From: a bacterium
GTDB lineage: Bacteria; Patescibacteriota; Microgenomatia; Curtissbacterales; GWA2-41-24
Assembly (NCBI GenBank): GCA_021813125.1
Contig: JAKALT010000004.1
Location: 7,941 to 71,940 of the forward strand
Length of the DNA stretch: 64,000 nucleotides
Reading direction: 5' to 3'
Position 1 is the first letter of the stretch; the number at the start of each line of letters is the position of its first letter. A program made the position numbers and the translations under genes. Below are positions 11,408 to 44,699 of this stretch, piece after piece. Under the pieces are notes generated by a model. That model saw only the letters and a program-made list of their open reading frames with translations. It had not been told where the DNA came from and did not search any database.

Positions 11408-11523
11408 GGGTTTCTATTTAAATATACTAGTATGCCTTACTCTAAAGCAAAGAGATTTTGGGTGCAGAGGATTTAAGAAGGATGAACGCTTGGGTTGGGG
11501 GTGCCGCTTGCGCAAGTTGGTGA

Positions 11524-11571
11524 AGGTCAGGCCTTTTTCCATGAGAGACCGATAGCTAAGGCCTGACCTTG
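11524..11571. repeat. Palindromic intergenic element, copy 1 (AAGGTCAGGCCTT - 22-nt loop - AAGGCCTGACCTT)
   Basis: Perfect 13-bp inverted repeat lying between the 660-aa gene and virB4. Confidence 0.7.
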
Positions 11572-11602
11572 GCTTGACTAGTGCTGTTGGTTGTGGTGCG
11601 GA

Positions 11603-15948: not shown

Positions 15949-16155
15949 AATAAATAAAATTCGAAATTCGAAATCCTAAATTCGAAAATTCTGATTTGTT
16001 CCGTGTTTCGATTTTCGCGCTTCGGATTTTTAGCCTATGGCTACCATAGCATATGAAACAAGAGGGTAAAAGTAGCGCACTTAGCCTCGAAAGTTGAGAA
16101 TTTTCACAAAAAATTAGTGATATGGTGGGATATCTTTTGGTCAGTAGAAGTTGTT

Positions 16156-16203
16156 AAGGTCAGGCCTTTTTCTTGCAAGAGGCGTTGGTTAAGGCCAGAC
16201 TTT
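16156..16203. repeat. Palindromic intergenic element, copy 2
   Basis: AAGGTCAGGCCTT...AAGGCCAGACTTT (two mismatches), lying between the PrgI-fusion gene and the AAA-wHTH gene. Confidence 0.6.
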
Positions 16204-16219
16204 TGCCAGGGATGGCTAT

Positions 16220-17476: not shown

Positions 17477-17556
17477 TTAGTAATTATACCGCTGTTAGCT
17501 TCCTGTTAGCCAAATATCAAGCACAAACGTCTCTAGTTGGTTAATCTACGTGCAAC

Positions 17557-20500: not shown

Positions 20501-21249
20501 CCGTTAAAGATAATTTGGTTGCTGGGCATAGCGAAACAGGTGTGTCTTACGATGGTCTACTTAAGGACAAAATGAAAAACATTGAGAATGGAAAGAGGCT
20601 GGATATAGAGGATAAAGACGACAAGTCATGGTTAAGAGGAGCTTCTGTCGAAGAGCTTATGCAAGACGGTGAGTTGACTTTGGAGGAAGTAAAGTGGAGT
20701 GAAATATTCAGCCATAATGATAAAGTTGTTAAGAAATTTAACATGGGCGATTGGTGGGGAGACCGGGCGGCAGCGCACAAATATTTTAATACAGAGGCTA
20801 TGCAGCAATACTTGAAGACACCTAACACCGATTTATTTTTCAAAATGAATGAAAGTATTTTCTATTCGAAGCGGGAAATTAGAATTCAGCCCTGGATGAA
20901 GCTTGTTATACCTGCCCACCAGGATTTGGGGCGGCATTGGCAGGAATGGTGGAAGCTTCCTTATGACATGCCGCACCGCGAAATAGAGAGAGTGATTGAC
21001 AAGGCCGCTAGACTCAATATGATTCGATATGCTTATGTTAGCAACATGAGGGGTCAATACTTAGGTTGGGGGCCGTTCAGCGGTAATGATTTTTTTGGTC
21101 TGGCTATGAAGGCTAGGTTTATCGCAGAGGCTGCGGATCGAGGTGCCCGGGAAACAGGTAAAGACAGTTGGCAGATGCCATTTGGATGGGGTTATGAGAT
21201 TTTCAGACTAGCTATGCAGCAGTCACAAGCCCAGCTAGCGGGCAAATAA
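17557..21249 (+). CDS. Large (1230 aa) acidic hydrophilic hypothetical protein
   Basis: Long uninterrupted ORF with no TM segments, no P-loop and a high D/E/K/R content. It is flanked by the palindromic elements. Confidence 0.5.
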   Translation: MAERIVAYDGQNGYAQDRGLFSMPGKEPGETPRPEITPPIKQPRGEAPQLLGGGLVDELRKIQEQLGRPEDRAEKPEADEGSQARKRYRRRGLEPRVPNAPASEPTIVPTAKDPVIIPSFPHFENCSSEQIKATLERHGVKVDVPSEEEWRKMNKLEKARWAESHHIINVTAIPDEVTVAKSTKGGIIISGLREDSAVNSRYLEEVIKQSGLEFDVEFPKGFDEKSYKDKLRWCKDHGLKIGPAIAGAEVVGTAVPVPPPAMYDDNDKVDVATAYRRLGKIRDSAERLGVTPNVTDIDQLQSRIRSIDAQRRIAELGSKEEIENRLIELQHIEARFGPVDFKVKGFDEEQKLLYEMMRVSINKDGRINDVLETLRNLEIQIDKGEISADDPEYRVWRGYLNHILGHVRTSEGIKRNFRFVFNASKAIDDFAKVNHDGGTDVLLNRVISKKERDDVRDATDSIDAHFQGKEAAYKNPGKRDALRTLYEEVDTAATSYRSSITYGSLTGMKDVETRLFDVEGAPVYEAAKNEQAGEKGLVEWHAVKTLEEMNIQQIGQNEMDVPLDWHDSKRNVDNNLRYAESGDFSEQDLRAIQDRISKIQSSLAQRVNQMKGESEAEKEERGNAEDMLSDINDLKDAVLAIYDLRLAMEGKDMNPEEVVQHFGSHIWKDTTFQTYFKRFAKDENNQAFRDGKGEFNIQDRAMQVLFKQLAQERRDLNLLEAMTIVDITTEFKPGDARYAEMARIMGRGNRTNAFSPDEVKKIEELRKAMYRGMEKHHYNPGDWGQGNSSEMLQETGQMKDVINDWYRNNTFLGAYGTYEGDDPKYQGKQNIDFFRGKLLDDFEARLVADGVDKGSIAEYKNSGLLNQVVNNAYHLSFSLGAFSDYDGIRVWDRKAVWFTNEQRGEVYRLGSYVFNNGSSWFHGRMVDHYTEFLQDEFRGRPRDANFEFTKNMIGKNRSVLGHNRLLSKIILDNLSQGSVDPTVKDNLVAGHSETGVSYDGLLKDKMKNIENGKRLDIEDKDDKSWLRGASVEELMQDGELTLEEVKWSEIFSHNDKVVKKFNMGDWWGDRAAAHKYFNTEAMQQYLKTPNTDLFFKMNESIFYSKREIRIQPWMKLVIPAHQDLGRHWQEWWKLPYDMPHREIERVIDKAARLNMIRYAYVSNMRGQYLGWGPFSGNDFFGLAMKARFIAEAADRGARETGKDSWQMPFGWGYEIFRLAMQQSQAQLAGK

Positions 21250-21265
21250 TTTTCCCGATCAAGTT

Positions 21266-23707
21266 TTAGGTTGGATTAGTTTCTTCTTGACCAGGCTGAT
21301 TGCCGCGTGGTCTAGCGAAAGCATCACTTATCCTCTTCGCTTGAGTCTTTTGTTGTTGCCTTTGCATAGCCCATCTTGCCGGGTATGCGGCGGCTGTTGC
21401 ACCGGCACCTAATGCTCCACCGATTGCTGCACCGGCGTTGAGGCCGCCCGGGCCGCCTTTGGCACCCATGGCGTTTTTAACCATTTCGGCGGCTGAGGGG
21501 GTGATAAGTAAGAAACCGATGCCGATTAATTTTGGTATTTCGCCCATACCGCCGGTTAGAAGCGGGAACTGGCCAACCTGCTCCGGGGTGATGATACCTT
21601 GTCCTTGGCCGCCGAGCGCTGAAATCCCGCCTATTATTCCGGCAAGCATGAACATCAGGGCAGTTACCGGAAAGACGGCGACATTGGAAGCCATTTGTTT
21701 AAACCATTCTTTGGCACCGTTATTGCCCGGTAGGGCTTGGATAAGGAAAAAGAAAGGGGCGAATATGGTCAGAATAATGATCATGACGTAGGCCATAAGA
21801 AGCATTAAAAAGACCCTGAACATAATATACAGTATAGTGGCGCCAACGACAAGTCCTGCAATAGTGCCACCGGTCCAGCCAATTGTCTTTTCTGCAAGAT
21901 CTCCGAGGATACCTCCAGGTAATTTTAATGATCCTTCTATGACACCGTCTATTGCTTTGGCCACAGTAAAAACAACTTGCTTCCATGTATCACCCCAAAG
22001 AAGTCCGAAGACATTATGCTGAAATATAAAATCACCTGTTGTTAGAAGCCCGGTTGCGACAAGAGCGCTTATCATAATATTTAAAAACAGGAACATCAGA
22101 TCGATCATGAAGCCGGCAATGGCATAGCTGAATGTGACCAAAATAAGGGCGACGACAATTCTGGGAATAGAATCCTGGACTGTGGCAACTGCTTGGGGTG
22201 AAATGTGGGCCCTGAACATGATCATAAAGCCCATGATAACGAAGACTAGGATGAATCCGATGTAGGAAATATTGCGGAAAGCGACCCAGATTTTTTGGAC
22301 CGGCCCGAGTGCCTGGTAGCCAATACCGCCTGGGTTGTTTCCTCCGGCACCGGCAAACGCGGGTTGGACCGGGTCAAGGTCATGGATTTTTTGGGCAAAA
22401 TATGTCACCCCGGAAGCAGGCGGTGCGGCGTAAAGTGATGCTACCATGCGGCCGGACAGGGCAAGAGCCCCTTTGCCGTTTATTGATGAGATTTTGTTTA
22501 AGTGCTGGTTTTTGCTAGAGCATCCAAAGAAGCTGAAGTACAGGAAGTCGAAAGTGTCGCCCCCCTGGTTATAAGTAAAGATGTTGCTGTCATAATAACC
22601 GTTTTGAATCGCGTCGTTGTTGACTGTGTCCAGCCAGGGGTTTTTCACTATTGGGCAATTTGAGGCACCTGCAACTGTGCTTGGAATCGTGAAATGGACA
22701 ACTGTTGAAACTGCGTTGAATATAGCAAAAACGGCGGCACAATATGATCCGTTTGGAAGCGACCATGACCAATTAGTTGTTGGAGATCCGACGGCGCCTA
22801 GAGCGCCACTATCTTTAACTACCGTTCCCGTGGTGTCGTCTTCTATGATGATACCGGCATTACCTGTTGCACCCACACCGGATGGGTCGGAAAAGGCGAA
22901 GGTAACAGTGTTCCCGCTAACATTGTCGGCGATTTTCCAGTCCGTGTTGGCTGGTGTGATATTGCAGCCAGTGCCAGGGGTTGGTGTTGGAGTTGGGCCG
23001 GCGGGGCCGACGTTTAAGATGTTGCTTGAAAGTCCTGGAATTACACATTGAGTCGGTGGGCTAGTGGAATTATCCTGGACAAAGACCGTATAATTTCCGC
23101 CGCTTGCAGGGGCGGTGAATGTTAAACTTGCAGCAGGGATATTACCACTTTGAGTAGCGGGATTTGATAAAACAGTACCCGAACTATCTTTTAAACCTGC
23201 TGTAAAAGGATTTCCGCTAACACCATTTATATTTTGTATGAAGAATTGTCCACTTGGCGCTACCGATGTAGGAGTGAACGTAAAGGCACACAATGGTGCA
23301 CCACTTACAGGAACTGTAAAAATTACTTCGTTAGAAACCAATGTCAAACCGACTACTATTGAAACCTTAAATCTACCGTCAGGAGGGTGAACTGCGATAT
23401 TCCAATCCGTTGTAGAAACAGTTAATTGGGTTTTACCCAGGAGAGATACACCATGTGCGGCACTGTCGTACACAGATGGGTGTGTGGGGTCGTCCCAATC
23501 AACGATTATCAAAACTGCGGCTGATGTGCCAGGATTGTCCCATTTAATGGTTACGTTGTTTCCTGACCAGGTTGGAGGATCAACTATATTGAAAAATGCG
23601 GCATTGGAAGGTTTAGTGGCAAAGCCCGATACAAGGAAAATAAAAGCGACGACGAAAAAGGATAGTAAGTATTTAGAAAACCACGGCAGTTTTAAATTGG
23701 GCTTCAT
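21266..23707 (-). CDS. Putative VirB6/TrbL-like T4SS channel protein with an N-terminal secreted beta-rich ectodomain
   Basis: 813 aa. A signal peptide is followed by about 450 aa of T/S/G-rich Ig-like region, then at least six TM helices and a Gly/Ala-rich C-terminal tail. The architecture resembles extended VirB6 homologues. Confidence 0.45.
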   Translation of the reverse strand: MKPNLKLPWFSKYLLSFFVVAFIFLVSGFATKPSNAAFFNIVDPPTWSGNNVTIKWDNPGTSAAVLIIVDWDDPTHPSVYDSAAHGVSLLGKTQLTVSTTDWNIAVHPPDGRFKVSIVVGLTLVSNEVIFTVPVSGAPLCAFTFTPTSVAPSGQFFIQNINGVSGNPFTAGLKDSSGTVLSNPATQSGNIPAASLTFTAPASGGNYTVFVQDNSTSPPTQCVIPGLSSNILNVGPAGPTPTPTPGTGCNITPANTDWKIADNVSGNTVTFAFSDPSGVGATGNAGIIIEDDTTGTVVKDSGALGAVGSPTTNWSWSLPNGSYCAAVFAIFNAVSTVVHFTIPSTVAGASNCPIVKNPWLDTVNNDAIQNGYYDSNIFTYNQGGDTFDFLYFSFFGCSSKNQHLNKISSINGKGALALSGRMVASLYAAPPASGVTYFAQKIHDLDPVQPAFAGAGGNNPGGIGYQALGPVQKIWVAFRNISYIGFILVFVIMGFMIMFRAHISPQAVATVQDSIPRIVVALILVTFSYAIAGFMIDLMFLFLNIMISALVATGLLTTGDFIFQHNVFGLLWGDTWKQVVFTVAKAIDGVIEGSLKLPGGILGDLAEKTIGWTGGTIAGLVVGATILYIMFRVFLMLLMAYVMIIILTIFAPFFFLIQALPGNNGAKEWFKQMASNVAVFPVTALMFMLAGIIGGISALGGQGQGIITPEQVGQFPLLTGGMGEIPKLIGIGFLLITPSAAEMVKNAMGAKGGPGGLNAGAAIGGALGAGATAAAYPARWAMQRQQQKTQAKRISDAFARPRGNQPGQEETNPT

Positions 23708-23871: not shown

Positions 23872-24059
23872 GACAAAGGAATCTTAACGACTGAAAATTA
23901 GTTAATAAATTAATATTTGGTGCGGGGAAGTGTAGTTTGAATCTACCACTGTGCCGCAAGGGTAAACAAGTCCCAGTACCGCATCAAATTTTACTAAATC
24001 CCGAGCAGGATAATCGTCTAAATAAACGACTTTAACCTTCTTGGGATCAAGGAGGTTTT

Positions 24060-25331
24060 TTGTTGAAGGAAGCAAATGTTTGTCTGTTGAAGGCCGATGA
24101 TCCCTGCTACCGGAGTGAGGTAGAAGTTGACAGGTTCTCGGTAACGCCTCTAGAACCCGATGAGGCTGACCTGGCGTTTAGGCCGTCTCTTATTAAGCAT
24201 CGCTACAGTGAATTTATAAACTACGGATTTAATGAATTCGAATCATATTGCCGTACTTATAATTTGACCAGGAGTGATTTAACTTCTTACTTTTTGGAAC
24301 AATTTGCCAAAAAAAATTTGGTTGGTTTTGAATACCATTTTGAAACGACAGATGATGGGTCGGTTAATATGGTTTCCACCCATTACGAACAGTCTGGTGA
24401 CGTCTGCGATAGCTTCGCAAGAGCTCGAGACGAAAGGCGATTGGCTGGCTTAGATTCCTCACGTGAGGAGGCAGAGCTTGAAGGTGTAAGAAAGATAAAA
24501 TCAGAACTTCTACAAGAGGGAAAAGATGCAACTGTTCTTTTGGTAAGCAGGCCTCCTGAAAAAAATCAAAACCGTCCCGGTTATGCCGGCTACAGTTTCA
24601 TTTATTTTGGAAAATACGATACCAAGACCGGAAATCTGCCAATGTATGCTTGGAGAAATTACATGACAGTAGACGAGCAAAATGAGTTACGAAGAGAATT
24701 TTTAGGCTTTGAAACAGAGAAAATGAAGGATGCAAACGATTTTTTAAGAAATCCGGCTTTTTCCTTTGGAGAGGAAGGGAATTATGCCTTTGACAGATTA
24801 AGATTTCGGGCAGGAAAAGAAGTAGCAGATCTTTACGATTACAGGTCTGAAGTTGTTGATAGAGCTGCAAAGGAGCTTGTCGATCTTGCGGAAGCAGGGG
24901 TAAGCGATTGGCGTATGAACATCGCCCAAGCAAATATCGAACTTGATTTTATTGAGGCAATTGAAGGAAAACGCAGTTTAAAGTTAGAACCTTCGTCTAA
25001 AACGGAAAGTTTTAAATCCGATGCGGAGGCTTACGGATATATGGTGGCTAGAAAGAAAGATATGGAATCAAAATATAATTTGGCTTCTTATTCGGGTGGA
25101 GGCTGTGGGCGATCAATATTTGCTTCGGTTGGCGGTGAGGCCGAAGGCGCAATAGGTTTGATACCGACACTTGCTATTTCTGATTTGCACTTAAACGGTC
25201 GGGAATATTCAGCGAATTTTAATTGCCCGAAGTGTAACGGAAAGATTATATCTGGACGAGGAATTACCACTTGTCCGCACTGTGGATTTACCAAAGAACA
25301 AGCGGCCAAAGAAATGGGAATTGCCTGCTAG
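24060..25331 (+). CDS. Hypothetical protein with a C-terminal zinc ribbon
   Basis: 423 aa. The C-terminus CPKCNGKIISGRGITTCPHCG is a CxxC...CxxC ribbon. Confidence 0.4.
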   Translation: MLKEANVCLLKADDPCYRSEVEVDRFSVTPLEPDEADLAFRPSLIKHRYSEFINYGFNEFESYCRTYNLTRSDLTSYFLEQFAKKNLVGFEYHFETTDDGSVNMVSTHYEQSGDVCDSFARARDERRLAGLDSSREEAELEGVRKIKSELLQEGKDATVLLVSRPPEKNQNRPGYAGYSFIYFGKYDTKTGNLPMYAWRNYMTVDEQNELRREFLGFETEKMKDANDFLRNPAFSFGEEGNYAFDRLRFRAGKEVADLYDYRSEVVDRAAKELVDLAEAGVSDWRMNIAQANIELDFIEAIEGKRSLKLEPSSKTESFKSDAEAYGYMVARKKDMESKYNLASYSGGGCGRSIFASVGGEAEGAIGLIPTLAISDLHLNGREYSANFNCPKCNGKIISGRGITTCPHCGFTKEQAAKEMGIAC

Positions 25332-25435: not shown

Positions 25436-28400
25436 TCAGGTTGATTTATTGCTGGAGAAGATTACCAGGCCTGTCCCGCAATTTGGGGCACAAACTGTTT
25501 CTTGGTAAGTTGTTGAAGGTTGGAGGCCGGTGAAGGTTGCTTGAGGCAGTGTTGAGTTGTCGTTTATAGTCTGAGTCTTGCAAAGACTTCCTGCCGCACT
25601 GCAGCTTGAAAAAGAAGCAGGGTAAACAACGGCAACGTATGACCAACCCCAAGACATCGAGGCGCTGCCGTCCGCATTGGCTCTTGTACCGCCCGATTTT
25701 ATAATGGGCCCAGTTCCGTCTGTCACTCTCACCTCAAAGATGAGTGATGAGCCAGGCCAAAAGATAAACTTCGGAGTTGAACAGGAAAGACTAGTACTTC
25801 TGCAGTCGGAAGTTTTTTTGTTTACATCAACGAAACCGGCGTAACCCCATGGTCTTCCCCAGCTGAGGTTGAGGCTTGTATTCGGAGGGGTTGGTGTAGG
25901 GGTAGGCGTTGCCTTTGGGGTAGGTGTTGGTGTGGGCTTCGGGGTTGGAGTGGGTGTGGCTTCAGGAGGCAAAGTTGGAAGCGGTGTCGGTGTAGGTGTC
26001 GGACCGGGTGTCGGGGGTGGCGTGGGTGACGTTGTCGGATTTGGTGTCATGGTTGGTTTTGGGATACAGCTGGTATCGATATTTTGATAATGCTGCAGAA
26101 CAAGAGGTTTTAAGGCCATGTCACGGACGAACATTTTGAAACAGTCGGTTGAGCCGATTAAGGGCTGTTTACCTTCGCCAGTTGTATCGCCGAGAACGTT
26201 TGAAGTTGACACACCTAAGGAGGCGCCGCCTACCTGGCCAGGGAGTTTTTTGGTGAGGCCGGAGATAATCGATTCAGCCATTAATGATGCACATGTTTTA
26301 AGGGCGGGAAGGTTCAGTAAATTATCCTCTACACATTTCTTGATCTGTGGAAAGTTGTCAGATTCCGGCAGGTTAGCCCAGTTGAGTAAGCCGCTGCAAT
26401 CTCCAGCTTTGCATTGATCCAGTAAATCTTGGAGATGTGCAGCAAGAGGGTCTTGCTGGCCTTGATTAGCGCTTTGTAAGACAAGATTGGGTGTAAAAAA
26501 CGCGTAAACACCCGGCCGGCCGGTTTTTTGAATTGAATTTGGCCCATCAATATTCTCTGCAGTGTCCGAGGCAAGGGTGTGATTCCAGATTTCACCGATC
26601 CAGGGAATCCTAAACACCGGCCAGACACTGACTGTTGCCGTACAGGTTTCTATTCCTGCTGTTATTGCACAACTATCCCACTGGCCGTTGCCGGAGGTTG
26701 GCAAATCCATTTGTTTGGAAAAGGTAAATGTAATGTTGCAGACGACGTTGGTGTTTTGGGGATCCAGCTGATTTGGGTCGTTGGCGTTTGGTTGGCTGCA
26801 GGTGCCCGCAGGAAGTTGGCCCGCCGGAACTGCACAATAGGGGGCCGTCCCGGAGCGGCCGTTTCCGAGCACTTTTACGCATGTAGGATCAGAAGCAGCG
26901 TAGGCATTTTTGATCGGGTGGATGTTTTCGATTTGCAGGTAGCTGACGACCTTTTTTAAGGCTTTGGTTAGCGGGTTTTGGGAGGCCAGGAAAACGCATC
27001 TTTTGATGATTTTAGCGAGTACGTTTTGGGTGCCTTGAGTTGAGGCTTGAAGGATCAGGTTGTTTTGGGTAGACTGCGCGATTTTAGGGGCAAGCATCAT
27101 ATTGGTTATGCCGGTTGTGGCAGCAGCGCGGAAAGTGTCGGGCATAATGAAGGTAATTGGCGGTCTGGAGTCAAATGGCACTGGGCATGTTCCTCCATTT
27201 TTAATTTGCGTTATCATGTCGCTTCCAACACCTACTTTAAATTCCAGTTTTCCCTCGTAGTATTCGTTGTAGGCTGTTGGAATTTTTACCCAATAAGGCC
27301 CCCATGTTGACTGGAAATTAGCTGAATCTGGGTTTGGGGCCCCCCATTTTTGGACCATGTCATAGATTGTATGAGGGTTCAGGCCGTTAACATCGGTTAT
27401 GATACTTGTCGATTCGGCCAAAGTAGGCTTGTTGTAAACGTAGTTGACGTATTTGACTCTCAACTGGTTGGTCAAGACTTTTGAGCCCGCTTTTTGATTG
27501 GGGCCAAAAAAGTTGTCACGGTCTTCGGTTGTTACTGAGGTTAAAGGAGCTTGTTGGTGGTTTGGGTCCTGATAACGGCCTTCTGTGTAATTTGAATTAT
27601 TGTCGGCAAAAATTGCCTGCAGTTTGGACATGTCGAGGGTGAAGGTGAATTGTTTATTTGGAGGGTCTGTAACAGCTGTAACGGTTGAGCCGGGAGCGCC
27701 GGTACCTTTGATGGTAAATGTGAAGTTAGGGTCTTGAGGGTTGCCCTTGTCGTCTGTAATGTAATGGTCTGTCAGGTTATCGGTTTGAACTGCGTTACTG
27801 CAAGCTTCGGGTTTAGGTGGTGGGGGAGGCGTGGGGGTAGGATTAGGCGTTGGTGTGGGAGGTGTGCTAGAAAGTGTGATTCTAACCGCATTGGAAATTT
27901 GGGCTGTGAAGTAGGTTAAGGCTGCACAGAAAGTTCCGTTATAACCATTCCATATTTGCGAGTTGCCGCTTACATGGATATTCCCGCCGGTAGCCGGCAG
28001 TCCGGTATTAGCATCAATTATATTTAAATAAACTTCTTGAGATGAGAGTATTGGGAGGCTTAAAGAGCCGTTTTCAAAGGTGAAATTAGCGTTTGTGCCA
28101 CTTATTGATGGTGGATCTTTGAGCTTATACTGACCTGTGTTTATTTGGTTACACTCACCGGGAGGTGGCGGACCACCGATAGTGAAATTTGGTGTTTTTG
28201 CAAGGACAGAAAAGCCGTAAACCAACCCTCCGCAGTATGTACCTGGCGGCGCACTGTTCCAAATTGTTGTGTTTGGCGAGCCGATGGGTAGCGGACCTGA
28301 GTCGAAGGCGGGTGGCACGGTGAAGTCACAGTTGGGTGCTGCCCAAACCCCGAAGTTACCATTGGGAGGTGTATGGGAAAAGGTAACAGTGTTGCCGCTA

Positions 28401-30241
28401 ACGGAGGCACTAATAGACCATGTTGATGGTGTTGGTGATGGTGGAGGGGGCGCGCCAATTGTTACGGTTCCGGAAAGACCTGAGGCATCAATTGAGGTGA
28501 TTGAGATTGTTACACCGTTTGTGGGGTCGGAAAAGCTAGTACCGGGTTTAAAAGCGGCATCTATTAAATCTGTCCAGTCATTTGGGTCAGCTGATGTGGA
28601 ATCTGGTGTTGAGTCTATTAAATAACTGTGGATATCCCCTGGTTGGTTAAAACGAATTAGGGCGCCGTTTTGTCCCGCAGATGGAATTCCTGTATCTAAT
28701 CCAGTAGGTTGCCGCCATTCCACATAGTACCAGGATACAGTTCCCCCCATAGGTTCGGTGATCCTGGGTACTTTGATAACATTAATGCAGCTGGTACTTT
28801 CGAAAGGACACAGACGAAATGGGCTTGAACTGGTGATAGTTTGTGTATTTCCACTATTGAGCCACCCATAAATATCCTTGTGAGGAGCGTCCACATCGAA
28901 AACATCAACTCCCATTACAGAATAAAGACCGTTGTATTCCTGGGTTGTGCATCCTGTTGTGGTATATATTGCCGAGCCACAATCCCAGTCATTTGAATGG
29001 TCAGCACCTAGCTGGTGGCCAATTTCGTGTGTGAGGCCATGATTGCCAAAATTTTGATTACCGAAAGGGGTGACATAAGCACCATTAGTGGAAGATGTGA
29101 AACCTATGGTAACAGATTTTGTACCTGTGGAATCGACGATGGGGTACGTGACGGGAGGCATCCATGCAAACCCAAGTGAGGTATTGCAGTTAACTACGAA
29201 ATGTACATGTCCATATTGGGTAAAATCGACGCTTGCTGTTGAGGCATTGATGAAGTCAGGGATTTGGGTCCATAGTGCTACCGGATCATTATTACAACTG
29301 GTCCCTACATTTAATGGGATATTAAACCAACCGTATACGTCAGGTTGAATGTCTAGCTGGCCATTAGAGGAGGCTAAAAAAAAATTTTTCATAAAATTGA
29401 CATAACCTTCAACGTCGGTTTTTGAGCCATTTGGATATTCAGGAGGCTGGTCTTGCCAACGAACTAAAATAACGGCTACCTTTTGAGGGCCTGTGGAGAT
29501 AGATGTTCCCTGAACATTGCTTGTTTTGGAGTCTTTTACCAATACAGTGTTGTCCCACTTATAACCATCAACAGAAATTCTTGCTCCGTTTTGGTTAGGT
29601 TCATCAACGAACTTTAGAAGGTAAACTTCTTTCGGGCTTTGTTGGAGCATGTTTACTCTTTGAGGTTTCTCGTTGGCCTTTTCTATATATGTTTGAAGCA
29701 GAGTTCCTTCCTTGTTGAACGATTGTTCCAAGTCGTTTGGAGCTAAATCCTGAATAGGCTTGCGTTCGGCGTCGGGGATTGACAAGGCTAAGGCTTCGGA
29801 TATTTTATCTTCCTTGATTAGGGATAAAACTTCTTTTTTACGAGCTGCTGCTGTTTCTTTTATTTTCGATTCTAAAGCTTCTTTTTCCTTCCCTTGTGAT
29901 TTTTCATACTTTTTAGCCAGGGAAACTAATTCGGAGGTATCTTTTTGAGCCTGGGTGACAGTTGATGGAGCTGGCGAAGGTTTATGTTTTAAAAGTTTAA
30001 AGCCGAATATTAAGACAGATATTATGGACACTAAAAGCAGGACAATTAGGCTTATCTTGCGGAGAAATTTGAAATTTGGTGGAGGTTTTTGCGGATTTGG
30101 CGGCTGGTTTTGGAATTTGGTACCGGGATTTTCACCAAGCTGATTTGCAGTCGGTGACTGGAGACCGCCATTTAATGTCCCTTCGAGGCTGAAAGGCGTG
30201 GCCATACAAACAGTGTACATTTGATATATAACGTGTGACAA
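25436..30241 (-). CDS. Giant membrane-anchored metzincin-type zinc metalloprotease (1601 aa) with multiple beta-rich domains and Pro/Thr linkers
   Basis: HEIGHQLGADH (aa 405-415) matches the HExxHxxGxxH metzincin motif. A candidate Met-turn, LYSVMG, lies about 30 aa downstream. An N-terminal TM anchor spans aa 61-83. PTPTPTP linkers are present, and the C-terminal region is Cys-rich. Confidence 0.6.
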   Translation of the reverse strand: MSHVIYQMYTVCMATPFSLEGTLNGGLQSPTANQLGENPGTKFQNQPPNPQKPPPNFKFLRKISLIVLLLVSIISVLIFGFKLLKHKPSPAPSTVTQAQKDTSELVSLAKKYEKSQGKEKEALESKIKETAAARKKEVLSLIKEDKISEALALSIPDAERKPIQDLAPNDLEQSFNKEGTLLQTYIEKANEKPQRVNMLQQSPKEVYLLKFVDEPNQNGARISVDGYKWDNTVLVKDSKTSNVQGTSISTGPQKVAVILVRWQDQPPEYPNGSKTDVEGYVNFMKNFFLASSNGQLDIQPDVYGWFNIPLNVGTSCNNDPVALWTQIPDFINASTASVDFTQYGHVHFVVNCNTSLGFAWMPPVTYPIVDSTGTKSVTIGFTSSTNGAYVTPFGNQNFGNHGLTHEIGHQLGADHSNDWDCGSAIYTTTGCTTQEYNGLYSVMGVDVFDVDAPHKDIYGWLNSGNTQTITSSSPFRLCPFESTSCINVIKVPRITEPMGGTVSWYYVEWRQPTGLDTGIPSAGQNGALIRFNQPGDIHSYLIDSTPDSTSADPNDWTDLIDAAFKPGTSFSDPTNGVTISITSIDASGLSGTVTIGAPPPPSPTPSTWSISASVSGNTVTFSHTPPNGNFGVWAAPNCDFTVPPAFDSGPLPIGSPNTTIWNSAPPGTYCGGLVYGFSVLAKTPNFTIGGPPPPGECNQINTGQYKLKDPPSISGTNANFTFENGSLSLPILSSQEVYLNIIDANTGLPATGGNIHVSGNSQIWNGYNGTFCAALTYFTAQISNAVRITLSSTPPTPTPNPTPTPPPPPKPEACSNAVQTDNLTDHYITDDKGNPQDPNFTFTIKGTGAPGSTVTAVTDPPNKQFTFTLDMSKLQAIFADNNSNYTEGRYQDPNHQQAPLTSVTTEDRDNFFGPNQKAGSKVLTNQLRVKYVNYVYNKPTLAESTSIITDVNGLNPHTIYDMVQKWGAPNPDSANFQSTWGPYWVKIPTAYNEYYEGKLEFKVGVGSDMITQIKNGGTCPVPFDSRPPITFIMPDTFRAAATTGITNMMLAPKIAQSTQNNLILQASTQGTQNVLAKIIKRCVFLASQNPLTKALKKVVSYLQIENIHPIKNAYAASDPTCVKVLGNGRSGTAPYCAVPAGQLPAGTCSQPNANDPNQLDPQNTNVVCNITFTFSKQMDLPTSGNGQWDSCAITAGIETCTATVSVWPVFRIPWIGEIWNHTLASDTAENIDGPNSIQKTGRPGVYAFFTPNLVLQSANQGQQDPLAAHLQDLLDQCKAGDCSGLLNWANLPESDNFPQIKKCVEDNLLNLPALKTCASLMAESIISGLTKKLPGQVGGASLGVSTSNVLGDTTGEGKQPLIGSTDCFKMFVRDMALKPLVLQHYQNIDTSCIPKPTMTPNPTTSPTPPPTPGPTPTPTPLPTLPPEATPTPTPKPTPTPTPKATPTPTPTPPNTSLNLSWGRPWGYAGFVDVNKKTSDCRSTSLSCSTPKFIFWPGSSLIFEVRVTDGTGPIIKSGGTRANADGSASMSWGWSYVAVVYPASFSSCSAAGSLCKTQTINDNSTLPQATFTGLQPSTTYQETVCAPNCGTGLVIFSSNKST

Positions 30242-30268: not shown

Positions 30269-30628
30269 CTAGCTTGTAAACCTTACGTTTGAGAGGTCAA
30301 ACCCCAGAAGATTTTGAAGAAGCAGAATTATAAGCCAGGAAACTACCACCAAAATAATGCCAATTAGGGCATAAGTCATGGTGTTTCTGGCTCCAGCCGT
30401 AGCTTTCGGGTCTCCTCCGGACATCAGAAACTGAAAACCGCCAACCAGCAACATAAAGAAAAAGGCAATCCCAGCAGCCGGGGCCAAAAGGCCAATGATG
30501 TTTTTTATAACGTTTACAATATCCGCCAATTGGGCAGGCGTGTTGGGATCGCCCGGAACTGTACAGCCCGACAATACAAGTGCCAAGGCCGAAAAGGCAA
30601 TGAAATGCCTCAGCTTGTTGAAAACCAT
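30269..30628 (-). CDS. VirB2/TrbC-like (T4SS-type) pilin-like small protein
   Basis: 119 aa. A lipoprotein-like signal peptide (LSGC) is followed by two hydrophobic helices flanking the loop MSGGDPKATAGAR. Confidence 0.5.
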   Translation of the reverse strand: MVFNKLRHFIAFSALALVLSGCTVPGDPNTPAQLADIVNVIKNIIGLLAPAAGIAFFFMLLVGGFQFLMSGGDPKATAGARNTMTYALIGIILVVVSWLIILLLQNLLGFDLSNVRFTS

Positions 30629-31032
30629 TATGATCCAGCGACAGTTGGAATGGTTAATGATCCAGAGATGATTGTGACACCAAAGAATGTTTCAACAAGT
30701 TTGATGATTGCAAATGCCAGCAGAACGATAACCAAACCGATTAGGGCGGCTGTGATCATACCTCGTGCTCCGGCAACAGACTTTTCGTCTCCTCCTGCCG
30801 TGATCCACCTGAGACCACCGATCAAAAGGAAGATGAAGGCCAAAACGAAAGCGATCAAAAGAATGAACCTGATGACGGCTCTGACAATTTGGATGATGTC
30901 CGTGTTACCTTGAAGCTCACTTGGTACGATGTTTTGAGCAAAGACTGCCATTGGCAGAGTCATTGCTGCTGCTTGCAGTGCGGCGAAGCCGATTAATTTT
31001 TTAGCTTTTGACATATTTTCACCTCCTTTCAA
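30628..31032 (-). CDS. VirB2/TrbC-like pilin-like small protein
   Basis: 134 aa. A signal peptide is followed by two helices flanking TAGGDEKSVAGAR. It shares the AFAIIKLVETFFGVTI segment with the next gene. Confidence 0.5.
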   Translation of the reverse strand: MKGGENMSKAKKLIGFAALQAAAMTLPMAVFAQNIVPSELQGNTDIIQIVRAVIRFILLIAFVLAFIFLLIGGLRWITAGGDEKSVAGARGMITAALIGLVIVLLAFAIIKLVETFFGVTIISGSLTIPTVAGS

Positions 31033-31084
31033 AGTAAGTTACTTGCGAATAAAGTCTAGAACAAAAACTCATTTTTGCGCCCTA

Positions 31085-31423
31085 TTATCTTGTCGGTAGC
31101 TGGAAGCCGCCGGAAACAATTGTGACGCCAAAAAAAGTCTCTACTAATTTGATTATAGCAAAGGCACCGAGGACTACAATCATGCCAATCAAGCCCCAAT
31201 AAATTTGTGCCCAGGCGGAGGAAACAGATTTGGAATCGCTCCCTGATGTTATGAAGCGAAAACCTGCCAGAATTATCCAGATAAAAGAGAGTATGAAGCC
31301 GCCAATTAAGAGCATCGATATTGAACCTCGAATTAATCCGGCGACAAAGTTGGAGGGATTGCCGCCTACTGTCGGGACACCGCCCGGAGGATTGATTGTA
31401 CCTAGTTGGGCAAGATTAGTCAT
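31085..31423 (-). CDS. VirB2/TrbC-like pilin-like small protein
   Basis: 112 aa. Two hydrophobic helices flank TSGSDSKSVSSA, and the second helix is paralogous to that of the 30628-31032 gene. Confidence 0.45.
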   Translation of the reverse strand: MTNLAQLGTINPPGGVPTVGGNPSNFVAGLIRGSISMLLIGGFILSFIWIILAGFRFITSGSDSKSVSSAWAQIYWGLIGMIVVLGAFAIIKLVETFFGVTIVSGGFQLPTR

Positions 31424-32469
31424 TAGGTGATTGGTATATTAGACTGCAAAAAGTACTGTAAAATCCTGACTATCACAAAAGCCAAAACTATGACTGCAAT
31501 TCCAATGATAGCATAGGTTAAGGTACCCTTGGCGCTTGCAAGTTTTTTCTCATCACCTGAGGATGTTGCAAATTTAAAGCCTGCCAAAACAATGAAGAAA
31601 AGCGCTAAGGCACCTGCAAGGCTGACTAAGACTAACAGTACATCTGAGACAAGCTGCCCAAATGACCCAAAACGTTTAGCGGGTTGAAAAACGTCCATGA
31701 TATTGAAAGGCGGAGCAGGGTTGTCGGGGTTATTCCAGTTATTACAATTGTCGGGGGCGGTAAATGGGACAGTATTAGATATATCAACCCAGGCTAAACG
31801 TAGCACTGCCGTGTCTGCCCCTTTCTGGTGGGCAGTATAAGTGACAGAGGTGACACCATCGGGGATGATTGGGGAAGTATACCCAGCTCCCAAAACAGCC
31901 AGGGCACTATTGTGACCGGCACCAGGTGTACCGTCCTTTCTTGCAATAGAAAAAACAAAGTCGCAGCCGGCTGAACTTTGCAGAGCCAATGTGAAATTAA
32001 TTGCATCCCCCGGCGGCGGAGTAGGAGGAGGACCGCAGGTTGGTGCCGTGACGCTGGCCGGGGTTGGATAGGTATCGACAAGCCCATTCCAAATCCGCCA
32101 TTCATAGGTTACTCCGGGTGCGAACCCGCCTGACTCGTAGCTGAAAGGTCCTATCCCAATATTTGTTATTCCTGAAAGACCACCCCAGGTGTATGATGTG
32201 GTGGTTCCGGGGATATACTGACCTGGATGAGTGGCGTCCGGCCACGCTGCTCCTGGTTCTCTGACATCAAGATAATAATAACTGCTTATTTCGCTATCGT
32301 TCCATTCAAATTTGATAAACCCTGCATCCCCAAAGCATCCGGCTGTGGCAGTTAGATTGTAAGGAGTTGCAAAAACTGGTTTTGCTCCTTTTGCTAGGAA
32401 AACTGCAGCGAATACTAAGACGAAAGAAAATGAGATTAGGGTTTTTGCGAGTTTGCTATTAAGAAACAC
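31423..32469 (-). CDS. Secreted beta-rich protein with a C-terminal pilin-like module (putative adhesin-pilin fusion)
   Basis: 348 aa. A signal peptide is followed by a P/T/G-rich ectodomain. The C-terminus reads FIVLAGFKFATSSGDEKKLASAKGTLTYAIIGIAVIVLAF. There is a 1-nt overlap with the downstream gene. Confidence 0.5.
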   Translation of the reverse strand: MFLNSKLAKTLISFSFVLVFAAVFLAKGAKPVFATPYNLTATAGCFGDAGFIKFEWNDSEISSYYYLDVREPGAAWPDATHPGQYIPGTTTSYTWGGLSGITNIGIGPFSYESGGFAPGVTYEWRIWNGLVDTYPTPASVTAPTCGPPPTPPPGDAINFTLALQSSAGCDFVFSIARKDGTPGAGHNSALAVLGAGYTSPIIPDGVTSVTYTAHQKGADTAVLRLAWVDISNTVPFTAPDNCNNWNNPDNPAPPFNIMDVFQPAKRFGSFGQLVSDVLLVLVSLAGALALFFIVLAGFKFATSSGDEKKLASAKGTLTYAIIGIAVIVLAFVIVRILQYFLQSNIPIT

Positions 32470-34963
32470 CGGTGCCTCCTAAAAATAGTTTATCGACAAT
32501 TTGCAAAACTGCAAAGGCAAGGATAATAACGGCGAGGCCAATAAGGGCGAAAATGAGTCGATTTCTCGCCGAGGCTGCCGCTTCCGGGTTGCCGGAAGAT
32601 GTTATGAATTGAATTCCTGAGATGACGATTATGATAATCGAGAGGAATCCGGCTATGCCAAATATGTATGGCAGAATTGCAGAAATTATTCCGCCGGGTG
32701 TTGCAAGCGCACAGTTTTTTATCGGCCCCTGGACTACGCCTGCACCTCCCGGGAAAGCAAGCCAGCCGCATTTGTTGTTTTGAGGCAAAGTAAAGTCGAC
32801 AACTCCTGACTCTTCTGACATAAAAACCACAACAACAGCTTGATGATGTCCGTTAGGTAGGGCATTGAAGCGGACAATACCGCCGCCTGCTGGGACCGGT
32901 TGGCTTAAGCCGTCAAGGTCTTTAATTGCGACAATGGCTTCACCGCCTATTCCGGGACAATTATCAGTTGGGCATTTTACATTAAAGATGGCATCGTTTC
33001 CGTTTATGACACTGGCAAGATACATGGTCCATTGGATGGCGTCGGTTTTGCAGGGAACGTCTATATTAACTGGGTTAGAAACTTGGTTTGCAGCATAGAT
33101 TATTTCCGCGGTGTAGCTGGCGGGTGTTGCCGGTGCGTCCCAGACGACGCTGGAGACATTTTCTGGTATCGAGATTTCCGCGCCGGTTTCGTTGATGTGG
33201 ATGACGCTACTTTTTCCGGAATTGGGTGAGATGCCGAAAATCACTTTGTACTCAAAGCAATTGGTAATTGAAAGTGTCCAGGTGTTGCCCGGGGGCGGGT
33301 TGACGGTAAAAAACTGGGTATTGGAAACTGCTACTCCGAATGCCAGCTGAGCGCAATAGTCGCCAACAGGCGGGAAGTTCCAAGTGACTTGAGTATTGCC
33401 CGATGCTATGGCGCCGCTATCAAACGGTCTTGGTAAAACACCCCAGTTACAGACGTCCCCGCTGCGTGGAGCAACAACAAGGGCAATATTGCCATTTGAT
33501 TCTGGGGTAAATGAAAATAGGACGGATAGTTGATTACTGGCAACATTTGGCGGGTCCAGATGCCAAGTTGCGACTGCTTTTACGGTGAGGGTGTTTGTTG
33601 CACCTACCGTAAGGGCACAAAGGTTTTTGGTGACATCGTCCCTCGCCCCAACGAGATAAGTTGTGTCGCTTGGCACATTAGGGGCTGTTAGCGGAATATT
33701 GCCAAGCCCGGTTCTGGTCCCACTACTTGGAGCCGAAAGGGAATCAATCGCAGCAAAGAATGTATGGGTTGAGTCACCACTTATGATTGAAACAGTTATG
33801 CTTCCCCCCTCGTCTACTGTTGTTGGAGAGAAATTGTAACTGCATGGGGTAGGCGGGTTGACGTTGATAACAACAGAATCGCTGGCGCTTCCGCCGGGCC
33901 CATTACAATTTAAAGTGTACGTGGTATCTATGATTAAGCTAGGTGTGGGTTGACCGGGTGATGACGTACCACTCCAACCTCCAGGAGATACGGAGCATGT
34001 TGTGGAGTTTGTTGAGGACCAGGTAAGAGTGGCAGTAGCACCATAGCTAATGGTTATGGGGCCATTGGAACCGTTAGCTTTAATATCGGCAGTTGGTGCT
34101 GGTGCAGTTACTGTTACCGAACACGTGGCATTTTGGGTACCGCTTGTGACAGTGACGGTTTTGGTCCCGGCAGTTGAATAATTCGTTGCAAAGTTCGAGC
34201 CAGACCCAGAAGATGGTGTCCCTCCGGGTGCTGACCAGCTGAATGTTCCGGTGCCTGCCGCGGCTGTGAAATTGGCGTTGACTCCAGTTGTAACTGTTTG
34301 TGTTGGCGGTGAACAGGTAGGTGCCGGAGGCGGGGCGACATTAACTGTGACGGAGGCCGTAGCAGTTCCACTGACATTGGTGCAGGTTAAGGTGAAGGTA
34401 GTTGTGGATATAAGGTTGCCGGTTGGTTGGGTACCGCTTGTGGCAACGGATGTGCCATTTAGAGTGCAGGTATCTGCGTTTGTTGAAGTCCAGGTTAAGT
34501 CTGTTGACGTGTTATATGGAATATTGGTGCTGGCTGCGGTTATGGAGACAGTTGGTACGGGAGGGGCGATGACGGTGATTGTGATACCGGTAGTTGGAGA
34601 ACAGATTTCCGGAAATGGGGTGAGGGGGTTTGATGTTCCGGCTACAACTAAGAATGATCCAGAATATGATCGTGGGTCACCAGCACCAAATAGATCATCA
34701 AGGTTTACTGTGGTGGTGAAGGAATTGCTGGGTGTATTAAAGTTTGTGGGAAAGAGACTGCTGTCATATTTAATTACGTAATCCACGTTTGGTTGGAGGT
34801 TTTGGACTGTTACATTAAAAGACCCATGGGCGACAACTTCCGTTGTTGAGACAATCAACTGACAGCCGGCTTGGGCTTCTATAGGTTTTGGAGAAGCGGC
34901 AAAAGGCAGCAATATGAGAACAAACGTAAACAAAACGGCAGCTAACTTCAGGAACAGTTTCAT
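32459..34963 (-). CDS. Large secreted multi-Ig-like-domain protein with a C-terminal pilin-like module
   Basis: 834 aa. A signal peptide is followed by about 700 aa of T/S-rich repeated beta domains. The C-terminus reads IIVISGIQFITSSGNPEAAASARNRLIFALIGLAVIILAF. Confidence 0.5.
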   Translation of the reverse strand: MKLFLKLAAVLFTFVLILLPFAASPKPIEAQAGCQLIVSTTEVVAHGSFNVTVQNLQPNVDYVIKYDSSLFPTNFNTPSNSFTTTVNLDDLFGAGDPRSYSGSFLVVAGTSNPLTPFPEICSPTTGITITVIAPPVPTVSITAASTNIPYNTSTDLTWTSTNADTCTLNGTSVATSGTQPTGNLISTTTFTLTCTNVSGTATASVTVNVAPPPAPTCSPPTQTVTTGVNANFTAAAGTGTFSWSAPGGTPSSGSGSNFATNYSTAGTKTVTVTSGTQNATCSVTVTAPAPTADIKANGSNGPITISYGATATLTWSSTNSTTCSVSPGGWSGTSSPGQPTPSLIIDTTYTLNCNGPGGSASDSVVINVNPPTPCSYNFSPTTVDEGGSITVSIISGDSTHTFFAAIDSLSAPSSGTRTGLGNIPLTAPNVPSDTTYLVGARDDVTKNLCALTVGATNTLTVKAVATWHLDPPNVASNQLSVLFSFTPESNGNIALVVAPRSGDVCNWGVLPRPFDSGAIASGNTQVTWNFPPVGDYCAQLAFGVAVSNTQFFTVNPPPGNTWTLSITNCFEYKVIFGISPNSGKSSVIHINETGAEISIPENVSSVVWDAPATPASYTAEIIYAANQVSNPVNIDVPCKTDAIQWTMYLASVINGNDAIFNVKCPTDNCPGIGGEAIVAIKDLDGLSQPVPAGGGIVRFNALPNGHHQAVVVVFMSEESGVVDFTLPQNNKCGWLAFPGGAGVVQGPIKNCALATPGGIISAILPYIFGIAGFLSIIIIVISGIQFITSSGNPEAAASARNRLIFALIGLAVIILAFAVLQIVDKLFLGGTGVS

Positions 34964-35016
34964 CTCGGCTTAACTTAAATGTAGCATTTTTCGAAGATTG
35001 ACGCTAAAAGTAGCGA

Positions 35017-35946
35017 TTAAGAATTGTATACAAGCCCCGGTATAGGAACAATGGCAACACCTAAAAATTGCATAATTATCACGGAAAAGGCTATGAAAAG
35101 TGCTCCGGCTATGGCAGCGACGATCATTTCCCGGCCTCCCGACATTTTTTGAGGGTCGCCAGACGAAGTCATAACACGTATTGATCCGATGACCATAAGA
35201 ATTAAAGCGATGCCTCCCGATATACCGAGGGCAATGCGAAGAAGCGTTGTTGCAAAATCACCAATTTTAATAGGTATTGTGCCTATTGCTGTTTCGCACC
35301 CAGCCTTGCATGGGTTGAAACCTGCACTTGAAGTGCTACCAACGCTACCACTACCAATTCCATTTATAGGGTCTGCTATTGCAGCATAATGTTGGCACTG
35401 TGCAAGGTCGGTATAGGTACTGGGATATGAAGATACGCGGCATTGATAAGTATTGTTTGTATCCACATATATTTCATAATATGTGGTATCTGGAGGGTGA
35501 AAGTAGGGATCCTTGGAAGAATCATAAGGAATAGGGTCTGCGGTAGTACTCCCGCAATCGATCTCCTTTCCACTTATGAGTAGTTGCTTGTAATCAAAAG
35601 TATATGATCCACCGCTATATGGGATTTTGCCAGCAATTGAATAAGTTGTGCTTATTGCTGAATTGTAGGATATGTTTGTTATTTTAGTTTTACCTTTGTA
35701 TATTATTCCGAGCGAGTACCAGTCACCAGTATCGTAATAACCGGGGTTAGCTGCACCGGTCACCACAGCATTATTGAAAAAAAGCATGATCTGAGTTCCG
35801 TCTGAAGAAACCATGGAGAATACATAGGCAAGTTGACAAGTATCTGCTTGAGCATTTGGAGGTTTTATTAATACTGTTCCAAGGGTTAATAGAAAAATAA
35901 TGGCAAACGATAAAAAACCAGGAACAAACTTGAGGAGCAGTTTCAT
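35017..35946 (-). CDS. Secreted protein with a C-terminal pilin-like module
   Basis: 309 aa. The C-terminal roughly 95 aa (CKAGCETAIGTIPIKIGDFATTLL...VMTSSGDPQKMSGGR...) are about 90% identical to the C-terminus of the 36068-37432 gene. Confidence 0.5.
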   Translation of the reverse strand: MKLLLKFVPGFLSFAIIFLLTLGTVLIKPPNAQADTCQLAYVFSMVSSDGTQIMLFFNNAVVTGAANPGYYDTGDWYSLGIIYKGKTKITNISYNSAISTTYSIAGKIPYSGGSYTFDYKQLLISGKEIDCGSTTADPIPYDSSKDPYFHPPDTTYYEIYVDTNNTYQCRVSSYPSTYTDLAQCQHYAAIADPINGIGSGSVGSTSSAGFNPCKAGCETAIGTIPIKIGDFATTLLRIALGISGGIALILMVIGSIRVMTSSGDPQKMSGGREMIVAAIAGALFIAFSVIIMQFLGVAIVPIPGLVYNS

Positions 35947-36000
35947 ACGCTTATCTCAAATGTAGCATTTTTGGAGCTTTACCGCTAAGTTGCCAGGATA

Positions 36001-36045
36001 AAGGTCAGGCCTTTGCTAAGGATCGCCCAAGTTAAGCCTGACCTT
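36001..36045. repeat. Palindromic intergenic element, copy 5
   Basis: AAGGTCAGGCCTT...AAGCCTGACCTT, lying inside the pilin-module array between the 309-aa and 454-aa genes. Confidence 0.6.
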
Positions 36046-36067
36046 AGCTTTTGATATGGCTCCGATT

Positions 36068-44222: not shown

Positions 44223-44229
44223 ATTTTGT

Positions 44230-44642
44230 GGAGATGCCGGGTATTGGGCCCGGGTCCAGAATTACAATTTGTAAACATCTACAAGCTTAGTTTATCTATT
44301 AAATCTTGCCGCAATTTAAAACCGATAAACAGGATAAATTTTGGCAAAGACCAAATTTTTGCCCACCCGTTTGGTCAAAACGACTGGACTATCCCGGCTG
44401 AGTTATTGCCCAAAAAGTTCCACCGGGAAAAAACTTTAAGGACAAGCCTTATTGCTACTTAAAAATTGTTAAGCAGCTAAAAAGGCTGGAGCTGCGCTAG
44501 GAGCAAATGCGCTCCTAATAAACGCAATTCCTTGTGCAATTTTAGATTTTGCACGTAATTTTGAACCAAAGCCTGACGCGCTTTAGATTCGTATTCGGCT
44601 TGCAGTTTGTCAAAGTGCGATCCTGTCGAAACAATACATCCC
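44230..44642 (-). ncRNA. ssrA: Putative tmRNA (ssrA)
   Basis: The minus-strand 5' end GGGGATGTATTGTTTCGACAGG resembles the tmRNA 5' end GGGGCTGATTCTGGATTCGACGGG. An internal reading frame ends ...GCT CCA GCC TTT TTA GCT GCT TAA, giving a tag ...APAFLAA*. The 3' end CATCTCCA pairs with the 5' GGGGATG. The gene is adjacent to smpB. Confidence 0.5.
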
Positions 44643-44699
44643 CAGGAAGCGAAATTATAGCAAAGAATAGATCTATTTTCAAAATTGATATCATGAATT

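Follow-up and report, generated by a model that had tools for sequence, protein, structure and literature searches.

Passages of a published study of Patescibacteria (PMC12102498) describe type IV secretion systems (T4SSs) that are MPF-FATA-like, lie near dnaA, carry arrays of 2-11 divergent VirB2-like pilins, such arrays being particularly frequent in Microgenomatia. Most of these clusters are without a relaxase according to the same passages, which describe no effectors. For a cultivated Saccharibacterium, passages of a second study (PMC10633639) report that epibiotic growth requires the T4SS with its pilin array. Here we analyzed a 64,000-nt stretch of a Microgenomatia genome (Curtissbacterales; assembly GCA_021813125.1, contig JAKALT010000004.1, positions 7,941 to 71,940; hereafter the window), which contains a locus that agrees with the systems as PMC12102498 describes them in those passages: it is MPF-FATA-like, lies near dnaA and has a divergent VirB2-like array. 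The gene directly downstream of the pilins (25436..30205, -) encodes a large protein that joins a predicted metzincin metalloprotease to a conserved domain, here called domain X. Those passages of the two studies that were found by search term make no mention of a large conserved gene after the array, of a fused protease or of a domain-X family.

With a probability of roughly 0.6, we read this protein as a conserved, T4SS/pilus-associated surface protein of a Microgenomates/Curtissbacteria-type locus, on which one lineage displays a proteolytic module of its own. In the mechanism that we propose, the protease-domain X protein would be made from a transcript common to the pilins, exported by Sec and held at the outer face of the membrane. 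Domain X would position it at or near the T4SS/pilus apparatus, and the zinc endopeptidase would cleave proteinaceous material on the surface at the site where apparatus and envelope meet, whether the envelope is that of a host or the bacterium's own. Other lineages would mount other add-on modules on the same domain-X scaffold.

The gene and its metzincin unit

All parts of the protein described below are encoded on the minus strand. The first-pass annotation, made from the sequence alone, had reported an open reading frame (ORF) at 25436-30241. The frame exists, but it is a mechanical one of 1601 aa on the minus strand that opens at TTG 30241, and the true start is likely the ATG at 30205 (MATPFSL...), which gives 1589 aa plus a stop codon. 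This start is favored because public gene calls (P0001, P0005) begin there and because an M-x-LPFSL N-terminus is conserved in orthologues; residue numbers throughout are counted from the TTG at 30241. The gene is intact and identical in four contigs from different assemblies; contigs in assembly GCA_027346405.1 and in an ENA metagenome have the same sequence as the window. In a 76%-identical orthologue of the whole protein the gene is likewise uninterrupted and the architecture unchanged. Identity in the four contigs and the shared architecture of the orthologue rule out a chimeric ORF or a misassembly, and the interruption in other assemblies that the first-pass annotation had named as a possible objection did not appear in any of these sequences. 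Every structured domain has an omega of 0.05-0.14 against the orthologue (0.14 for the catalytic domain), which indicates purifying selection; the N-terminal tail and transmembrane (TM) segment, with an omega of 0.45, form the sole region above 0.14.

The catalytic domain (28856..29497, aa 249-462) holds the zinc-binding consensus HEIGHQLGADH (28997..29029, aa 405-415), which comprises H405, E406, H409, G412 and H415 and is followed by Ser. The Met-turn SVMGV (28907..28921), whose M443 stands 28 residues past the third zinc-ligand His (H415), aligns with the serralysin Met-turn SVMS. Both elements had been recognized beforehand, and the zinc motif is exact. E406, G408, H409 and M443 are invariant in an alignment of 30 sequences, together with an Arg in the following beta domain, while H405, G412 and H415 are nearly so, and the zinc motif is kept in the 76%-identical orthologue. 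The motif is no product of chance, since the 380-aa region that contains it shows homology to metallopeptidases over its full length. Zinc motif, Met-turn and predicted fold thus point to a metzincin, as originally proposed, and the motif region, whose folding had been singled out as the place where that proposal might fail, is a metzincin in the predicted structure. The protein is accordingly expected, on homology and modeling, to be a zinc-dependent endopeptidase.

A complete unit of the M11/M6 type, followed by two beta modules, separates the membrane anchor from domain X. The parts of this unit are, in order, a stalk, an N-terminal beta domain, the catalytic domain and, on the C-terminal side, a beta sandwich. 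The N-terminal beta domain (29498..29740, aa 168-248; placed by alignment, strands 6-74 of the AlphaFold2 (AF2) model) also precedes the catalytic domain in stand-alone M11-like relatives. The beta sandwich (28442..28855, aa 463-600), with the conserved motif WYY-E-RQP-G-D, accompanies the catalytic domain in all relatives and forms part of the match to InhA2.

A word-indexed search with the whole protein returned only 3 proteins, and relatives emerged by searching the catalytic unit and the remainder separately. When aa about 218-600 served as the query, stand-alone secreted proteins of ~530-660 aa were found at ~30% identity over 97-100% of the query. P0007-P0011 and P0013-P0020, at 27-31% identity over 97-100% of the unit, carry PF05548, for which P0007 scores 54.5 bits (cut-off 21). 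A profile built from the stand-alone relatives matched 26 proteins in total, with scores up to 570 bits; most carry Pfam Peptidase_M11 (gametolysin, PF05548) and the remotest carry Peptidase_M6. The nearest sequence relatives are bacterial stand-alone members of the gametolysin family (M11; ~30% over the unit of 350-380 aa). Common to them and the window protein are the N-terminal beta domain, HExxHxxGxxH-S, a C...C pair, Y-x-D (in the window protein, Y-x-D/G), the MG Met-turn and the WYY-E-RQP-G-D beta domain. The window protein differs from them by an insertion of ~22 aa in the catalytic domain (aa about 355-376). The relatives, one of which comes from a proteobacterial metagenome-assembled genome (MAG), are secreted and have MG2/Ig C-terminal domains, and in none of them is a TM anchor or domain X attached.

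The closest structural relative is InhA2 (InhA/InhA2; MEROPS M6; PDB 4yu5), which has 17% sequence identity to the window protein. In the M6 family the third zinc ligand is Asp (HEXXHXXGXXD). Asp also holds this position in the M6-type proteins P0033 and P0034 (PF05547; HEFGHQLGLPD/VD), whereas the window protein has His. InhA also differs in being soluble and secreted, without a membrane tether, a T4SS locus or domain X. The best direct PDB sequence matches are serralysins, across ~60 residues that span the zinc motif and the Met-turn (E 1e-4). Serralysins and alkaline protease (M10B), however, have a Tyr two residues past the Met (SVMSY), where the window protein has SVMGV, and Pfam and NCBIfam scans detected no RTX repeat domain in it. 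The O-glycopeptidases OgpA and Amuc_1438 of Akkermansia (annotated M11-like; PDB 6z2o, 8df2) match no better than ADAMs and adamalysins. One further PDB entry, 8zvk, was the top sequence match of the whole protein and was discarded as low complexity of a Pro/Thr (PT) linker. Membership in Reprolysin_5 (24.3 bits with Pfam on the whole protein, below 27), in M6 or in the serralysins is not claimed, all of these whole-protein Pfam and NCBIfam scores being sub-threshold. The enzyme is best placed as a divergent member of the M11/M6 neighborhood of metzincins, so that gametolysin and InhA take the place of the families suggested initially (M10, M12, M66, pappalysin, M64).

At the N-terminus, a Pro/Gln-rich tail of ~50 aa that ends in FKFLRK precedes a single hydrophobic segment, KISLIVLLLVSIISVLIFGFKLL (29990..30058, about aa 62-84), which was located by a hydropathy scan and is read as a signal anchor. 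The anchor postulated in the first-pass annotation is matched, as far as hydropathy can tell, by this one segment, and the protein is probably tethered to the membrane by its N-terminus and exposed at the outer surface. The next segment (29741..29971, aa 91-167; placed by alignment) is a charged helical stalk or possibly a propeptide. It is the best-conserved segment between the two protease-bearing lineages (91% identity, omega 0.09), and in the alignment it is missing from the stand-alone M11-like relatives. A cysteine-switch propeptide was considered and excluded, there being no Cys in aa 13-315.

Domain X and the lineage-specific fusion

Downstream of the metzincin unit the protein continues with module A (28157..28432, aa 604-695), a two-Cys beta module of ~90 aa delimited by sequence comparison, and with a second beta module, module B (27857..28156, aa 696-795), which also occurs in homologues of the ORF 21266..23707. 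A short PT linker (aa 796-812) leads to domain X (26057..27805, aa 813-1395), which is Cys-rich and of mixed alpha/beta composition. A further Pro/Thr linker (25883..26056, aa 1396-1453), the one quoted in the first-pass annotation, connects domain X to a C-terminal beta domain with 6 Cys (25439..25882, aa 1454-1601) that has weak fn3-like similarity and is common to the protease-less orthologues L004, L005 and P0035. The multiple domains and PT linkers described at first are therefore borne out, as is the Cys-containing C-terminus, with 6 of the protein's 32 Cys in the final 148 aa. The label of a giant surface protease fared less well: a protease is present, but it is a lineage-specific N-terminal addition to a T4SS-locus protein and not the core of that protein. 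The conserved, syntenic core, judged by sequence comparison, is domain X.

A HMMER scan with aa 597-1395 against 1.84 billion representative proteins yielded 100 representative clusters with domain X (95 at E<1e-10), nearly all of which align to aa about 800-1392. Typical members are 550-900 aa long and carry the domain right after the signal peptide. The domain is marked by the motifs WG-YW-KIPT-Y-E-Y, P-F-IP---EIWN-T--S, Q--G-PG-Y--F-P and IG--DC-K and by ~10 conserved Cys. Pfam gave no match on 55 members, the best hit of the domain-X profile to PDB sequences had an E of 0.84, and Foldseek against the PDB returned nothing at E<=1e-3 despite a confident AF2 model. In P0041, P0057, P0058, P0061 and P0066, several hundred extra residues, including runs of small two-Cys beta modules, stand in the middle of domain X.

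To describe the surroundings of the domain, one genome per species was scanned, and the 16 loci that encode domain X were annotated with local hidden Markov models (HMMs) for the pilin hairpin, the M11 unit, domain X and the neighboring proteins of the window. The domain-X gene comes directly after 4-7 pilin genes in 12/12 related loci that have the upstream flank; in the window and in L001-L003, it likewise lies immediately downstream of a VirB2-like pilin array. Gene order is as in the window, with genes for a membrane protein and a SpoIID-like protein in divergent orientation on one side, then the pilins and the domain-X gene, followed by homologues of the ORFs 21266..23707 and 17557..21249, the regulator and PrgI. 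In four loci, a homologue of the ORF 24060..25331 precedes the group that begins with the 21266..23707 homologue. The related loci come mainly from Candidatus Curtissbacteria (Microgenomates group). Five of them (L005, L008, L013, L014, L017) belong to MAGs labeled 'uncultured Gammaproteobacteria bacterium', yet have the same Patescibacteria-type locus with pilin array, domain X and SpoIID-like neighbor, and the label looks like a placeholder or a wrong taxonomy.

The pilin array of the window consists of seven genes (30269..37432, -). The encoded proteins all begin with a signal peptide and end in a VirB2-like T4SS_pilin hairpin, with a variable extracellular module in between. The two-helix hairpin was recognized as PF18895 (T4SS_pilin) at the C-terminus of six of the seven proteins, four above the cut-off and two just below it. 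The seventh was matched by the NCBIfam pilin-like conjugal-transfer model, at 25.6 bits (cut-off 40), and by the local array HMM. The protease gene is placed directly downstream of this array, as had been stated: it is co-oriented with the seven genes and separated from the last of them by 63 nt, and a crude terminator scan found no terminator-like site in the gap. It is probably co-transcribed with the pilins. The neighbors had been called pilin-adhesins, which is right as to pilins; they are VirB2-like T4SS pilins in a Gram-positive-type locus near dnaA, however, and not generic adhesins.

The protease is restricted in a way that domain X is not. The M11 unit was found in 0/16 of the domain-X loci of the scan, and among ~95 representative domain-X proteins it occurs in the window's cluster alone. 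The nearest orthologues, L004 and L005 (67% and 64% identity in domain X), retain the N-terminus, TM segment, domain X, PT linker and C-terminal domain, and a module of ~110 aa replaces the ~730 aa of stalk, protease and modules A and B. This replacement resembles the N-terminal domain of a 348-aa pilin-fusion protein of the window (31423..32469, -). Module A has 38% identity to a segment of the 834-aa pilin-fusion protein (32459..34963, -) and is found in the ORF 21266..23707 as well. Because synteny holds without the protease and other modules fill its slot, the protease is one of several swappable modules on a scaffold of which domain X is the core. Small beta modules with two Cys have been shuffled between three kinds of protein: the protease, the pilin fusions and the product of the polytopic ORF 21266..23707.

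Additions are also found on the other side of domain X. An add-on homologous to aa 425-653 of the polytopic ORF 9425..11407 (-) follows the domain in three loci (L014, L016, L019) and in seven representative proteins (P0044, P0048, P0052, P0058, P0071, P0101, P0103), and in those lineages a homologue of the ORF 8844..9428 comes after it. In the window, aa 425-653 form the extracellular C-terminal domain of a polytopic T4SS-cluster protein. Their fusion to domain X ties that domain, in the manner of a Rosetta stone, to the T4SS core cluster. By eye, the C-terminus of the ORF 9425..11407 and the add-ons of domain-X proteins resembled SLT lytic transglycosylases. Pfam does not bear this out, with no match in the window ORF, 19.3 bits in P0038 (cut-off 21.3) and an E of 0.12 in P0036, and the resemblance is a weak lead only.

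Divergence is uneven along the gene. When the window is compared with the L001 lineage, the protease half (28157..29971) has 81-91% amino acid identity and a synonymous divergence (pS) of 0.38-0.58. The corresponding values are 70% and 0.73 for domain X (26057..27805), and 52-73% and 0.69-0.75 for the flanking genes. The protease half may have been exchanged between lineages after their divergence, or may be under extra constraint; the contrast in pS is only suggestive, because the remainder of the gene is close to saturation at synonymous sites.

Possible roles of the protease

Relatives that have the same locus without the protease argue for an accessory specialization, and against a role in pilin maturation or one like that of VirB1. 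The host- or prey-directed function put forward in the first-pass annotation may apply. Several observations nevertheless weigh against our reading of the protein as a proteolytic module displayed at the T4SS. The protease is confined to one small lineage; it is therefore not required for the T4SS, and an unrelated use such as nutrition is possible. The association of domain X with the pilus and the T4SS is suggested by synteny and domain sharing, and co-transcription by strand, spacing and the crude terminator scan. Family placement comes from transitive homology and predicted structure: unlike most of its M11 relatives, the window protein itself falls below PF05548 (no match at E<=1), and it scores 32.8 bits on the NCBIfam M6 model (TIGR03296 / PF05547; below 110.8) and 26 bits on the NCBIfam serralysin model (below 500). 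Finally, no activation mechanism was identified for the protease.

The role of domain X could also extend further than display. We tentatively entertain, as a possibility that we would not favor, that domain X is an unrecognized structural component of the Microgenomates-type T4SS/pilus, displaying interchangeable lineage-specific modules that are exchanged as cassettes. Domain X may then be a pilus-associated or tip-like scaffold and its modules a 'warhead' or binding parts, examples being the metzincin, the homologue of aa 425-653 of the ORF 9425..11407 and the pilin-type Ig modules.

It is doubtful that the protease serves nutrient scavenging, as a tethered endopeptidase with which an auxotrophic, ultra-small bacterium frees peptides from proteins of the environment or of a host and for which the T4SS-locus protein is merely a display scaffold. 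The stand-alone proteins most closely related to the protease are themselves proteases, secreted by free-living bacteria (signal peptide, M11 unit, MG2/Ig domain), and passages of PMC10633639 and PMC12102498 describe Patescibacteria as broadly auxotrophic. The fusion, however, lies within a conserved T4SS-locus gene, and no peptide transporter adjoins the protease gene. The lower synonymous divergence of the protease half than of its flanks also suggests selection on the cassette, or its exchange, in this particular context.

We consider it unlikely that the enzyme is self-directed, trimming the N-terminal modules or PT linkers of its own T4SS pilin-fusion proteins as a biogenesis factor and not as a weapon. 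Other T4SSs use dedicated pilin-processing enzymes, and the locus would suit such a role in that the gene comes immediately after the seven pilin-fusion genes, probably on the same transcript, that module A is common to the protease and one pilin-fusion protein, and that the pilin fusions carry PT linkers and bulky N-terminal domains. Yet a domain-X protein and an equivalent pilin-fusion array occur in twelve related loci that have no protease. The nearest orthologues, L004 and L005, lack it too, and an essential step would not be limited to one lineage.

Remodeling of the bacterium's own envelope, in which the protein would act as a VirB1/PrgK analogue that opens the wall or S-layer for T4SS/pilus assembly, strikes us as improbable. 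The likeness to VirB1/PrgK-type hydrolases consists in an enzyme encoded in a Gram-positive-type T4SS locus, an N-terminal TM anchor and a modular build. Passages of PMC12102498 describe PrgK-type proteins with such an anchor and enzymatic domain, and also report that a recognizable VirB1 is often absent from Patescibacteria T4SS loci; the sub-threshold SLT similarity of P0038, in the C-terminal region of a domain-X protein, points the same way. VirB1/PrgK-type proteins are, however, peptidoglycan hydrolases (SLT, CHAP, LytM), whereas the window protein is a predicted metzincin endopeptidase joined to domain X, not a muramidase, amidase or LytM enzyme, and Pfam and NCBIfam found no SLT, CHAP or LytM domain in it. 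An M23 peptidase is already present in the locus, and relatives assemble the same locus without the protease.

A catalytically silent binding module or permanently latent zymogen, with the metzincin fold used as an adhesin-like domain, would fit a protein composed of swappable binding-type modules whose activation mechanism was not identified, but it is highly improbable given that both lineages retain all catalytic determinants (three His, general-base Glu, Gly and Met-turn), that these are (nearly) invariant across the family, and that omega is 0.14.

Other features of the window and the meaning of the fusion

The rest of the T4SS locus (7202..23707) adjoins dnaN and dnaA. Besides the polytopic ORF 9425..11407, it comprises an M23 peptidase (8215..8847), a VirB4-like ATPase (11603..13507), a TrsD-like gene (13504..14397), a PrgI/VirB3-like gene (14398..15948), a regulator (16220..17476) and the ORF 17557..21249. 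Several unannotated membrane proteins are also part of the T4SS block, which extends over ~30 kb in all, next to dnaA. The product of the polytopic ORF 21266..23707 (-), 813 aa long, combines a signal peptide and Ig-like modules with a polytopic membrane domain at its C-terminus, and in 11 loci it is conserved on the downstream side of domain X. No family could be matched to this ORF, which may be a divergent VirB6/PrgH equivalent; such an equivalent is reported to be scarce in Microgenomatia in passages of PMC12102498.

Within the T4SS locus and convergent with the protease gene is the ORF 24060..25331 (+), which encodes an unannotated, Cys-rich protein of 423 aa whose C-terminus has a zinc-ribbon-like CPKC...CPHC. 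About 70 nt upstream of this ORF lies an AdoCbl-II (cobalamin) riboswitch aptamer (23908..23989, +; 41.8 bits, gathering 36.5). Homologues occupy the equivalent position in L007, L013 and L015. An ORF of L001 (5552..6835) was rejected as a homologue at 20% identity, and the downstream neighbor of the protease gene is therefore not strictly conserved.

Farther along the window, a tmRNA gene (44226..44643, -) is followed by a tRNA cluster (46591..50435) with four tRNA-Ser (TGA, GCT, CGA, GGA) and one tRNA-Arg within 4 kb. At 53912..57966 (+) are encoded a YfhO-like protein and a PMT-family (protein O-mannosyltransferase-like) membrane glycosyltransferase; the two could be relevant if the many PT linkers of T4SS-locus proteins are O-glycosylated. 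A group I intron (59322..59547, +; 66.7 bits) is preceded by a coding sequence with an HNH-like motif (CANCHREVH), and an apparent tRNA 3' half (GGTTCGAGTCC T-arm) lies at about 59560-59595, where ARAGORN called no tRNA. This region may represent an intron-split tRNA with a homing endonuclease.

Much of bacterial diversity belongs to the Patescibacteria, which seem to live on other microbes. If the protease of the window merely scavenges, it is an ordinary new metzincin with an unusual anchor. If domain X is indeed a structural component of the T4SS, the metzincin fusion would be the first enzymatic effector identified as physically built into a T4SS of the candidate phyla radiation, and would breach the host surface. 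Domain X, strictly linked as it is to pilin arrays, is more novel than the protease itself: a conserved domain of 590 aa that always accompanies the array offers a handle on T4SS function. The window provides a natural experiment in this respect, one lineage having fused a recognizable, assayable enzyme to domain X, the substrates of which would show the surface acted on.

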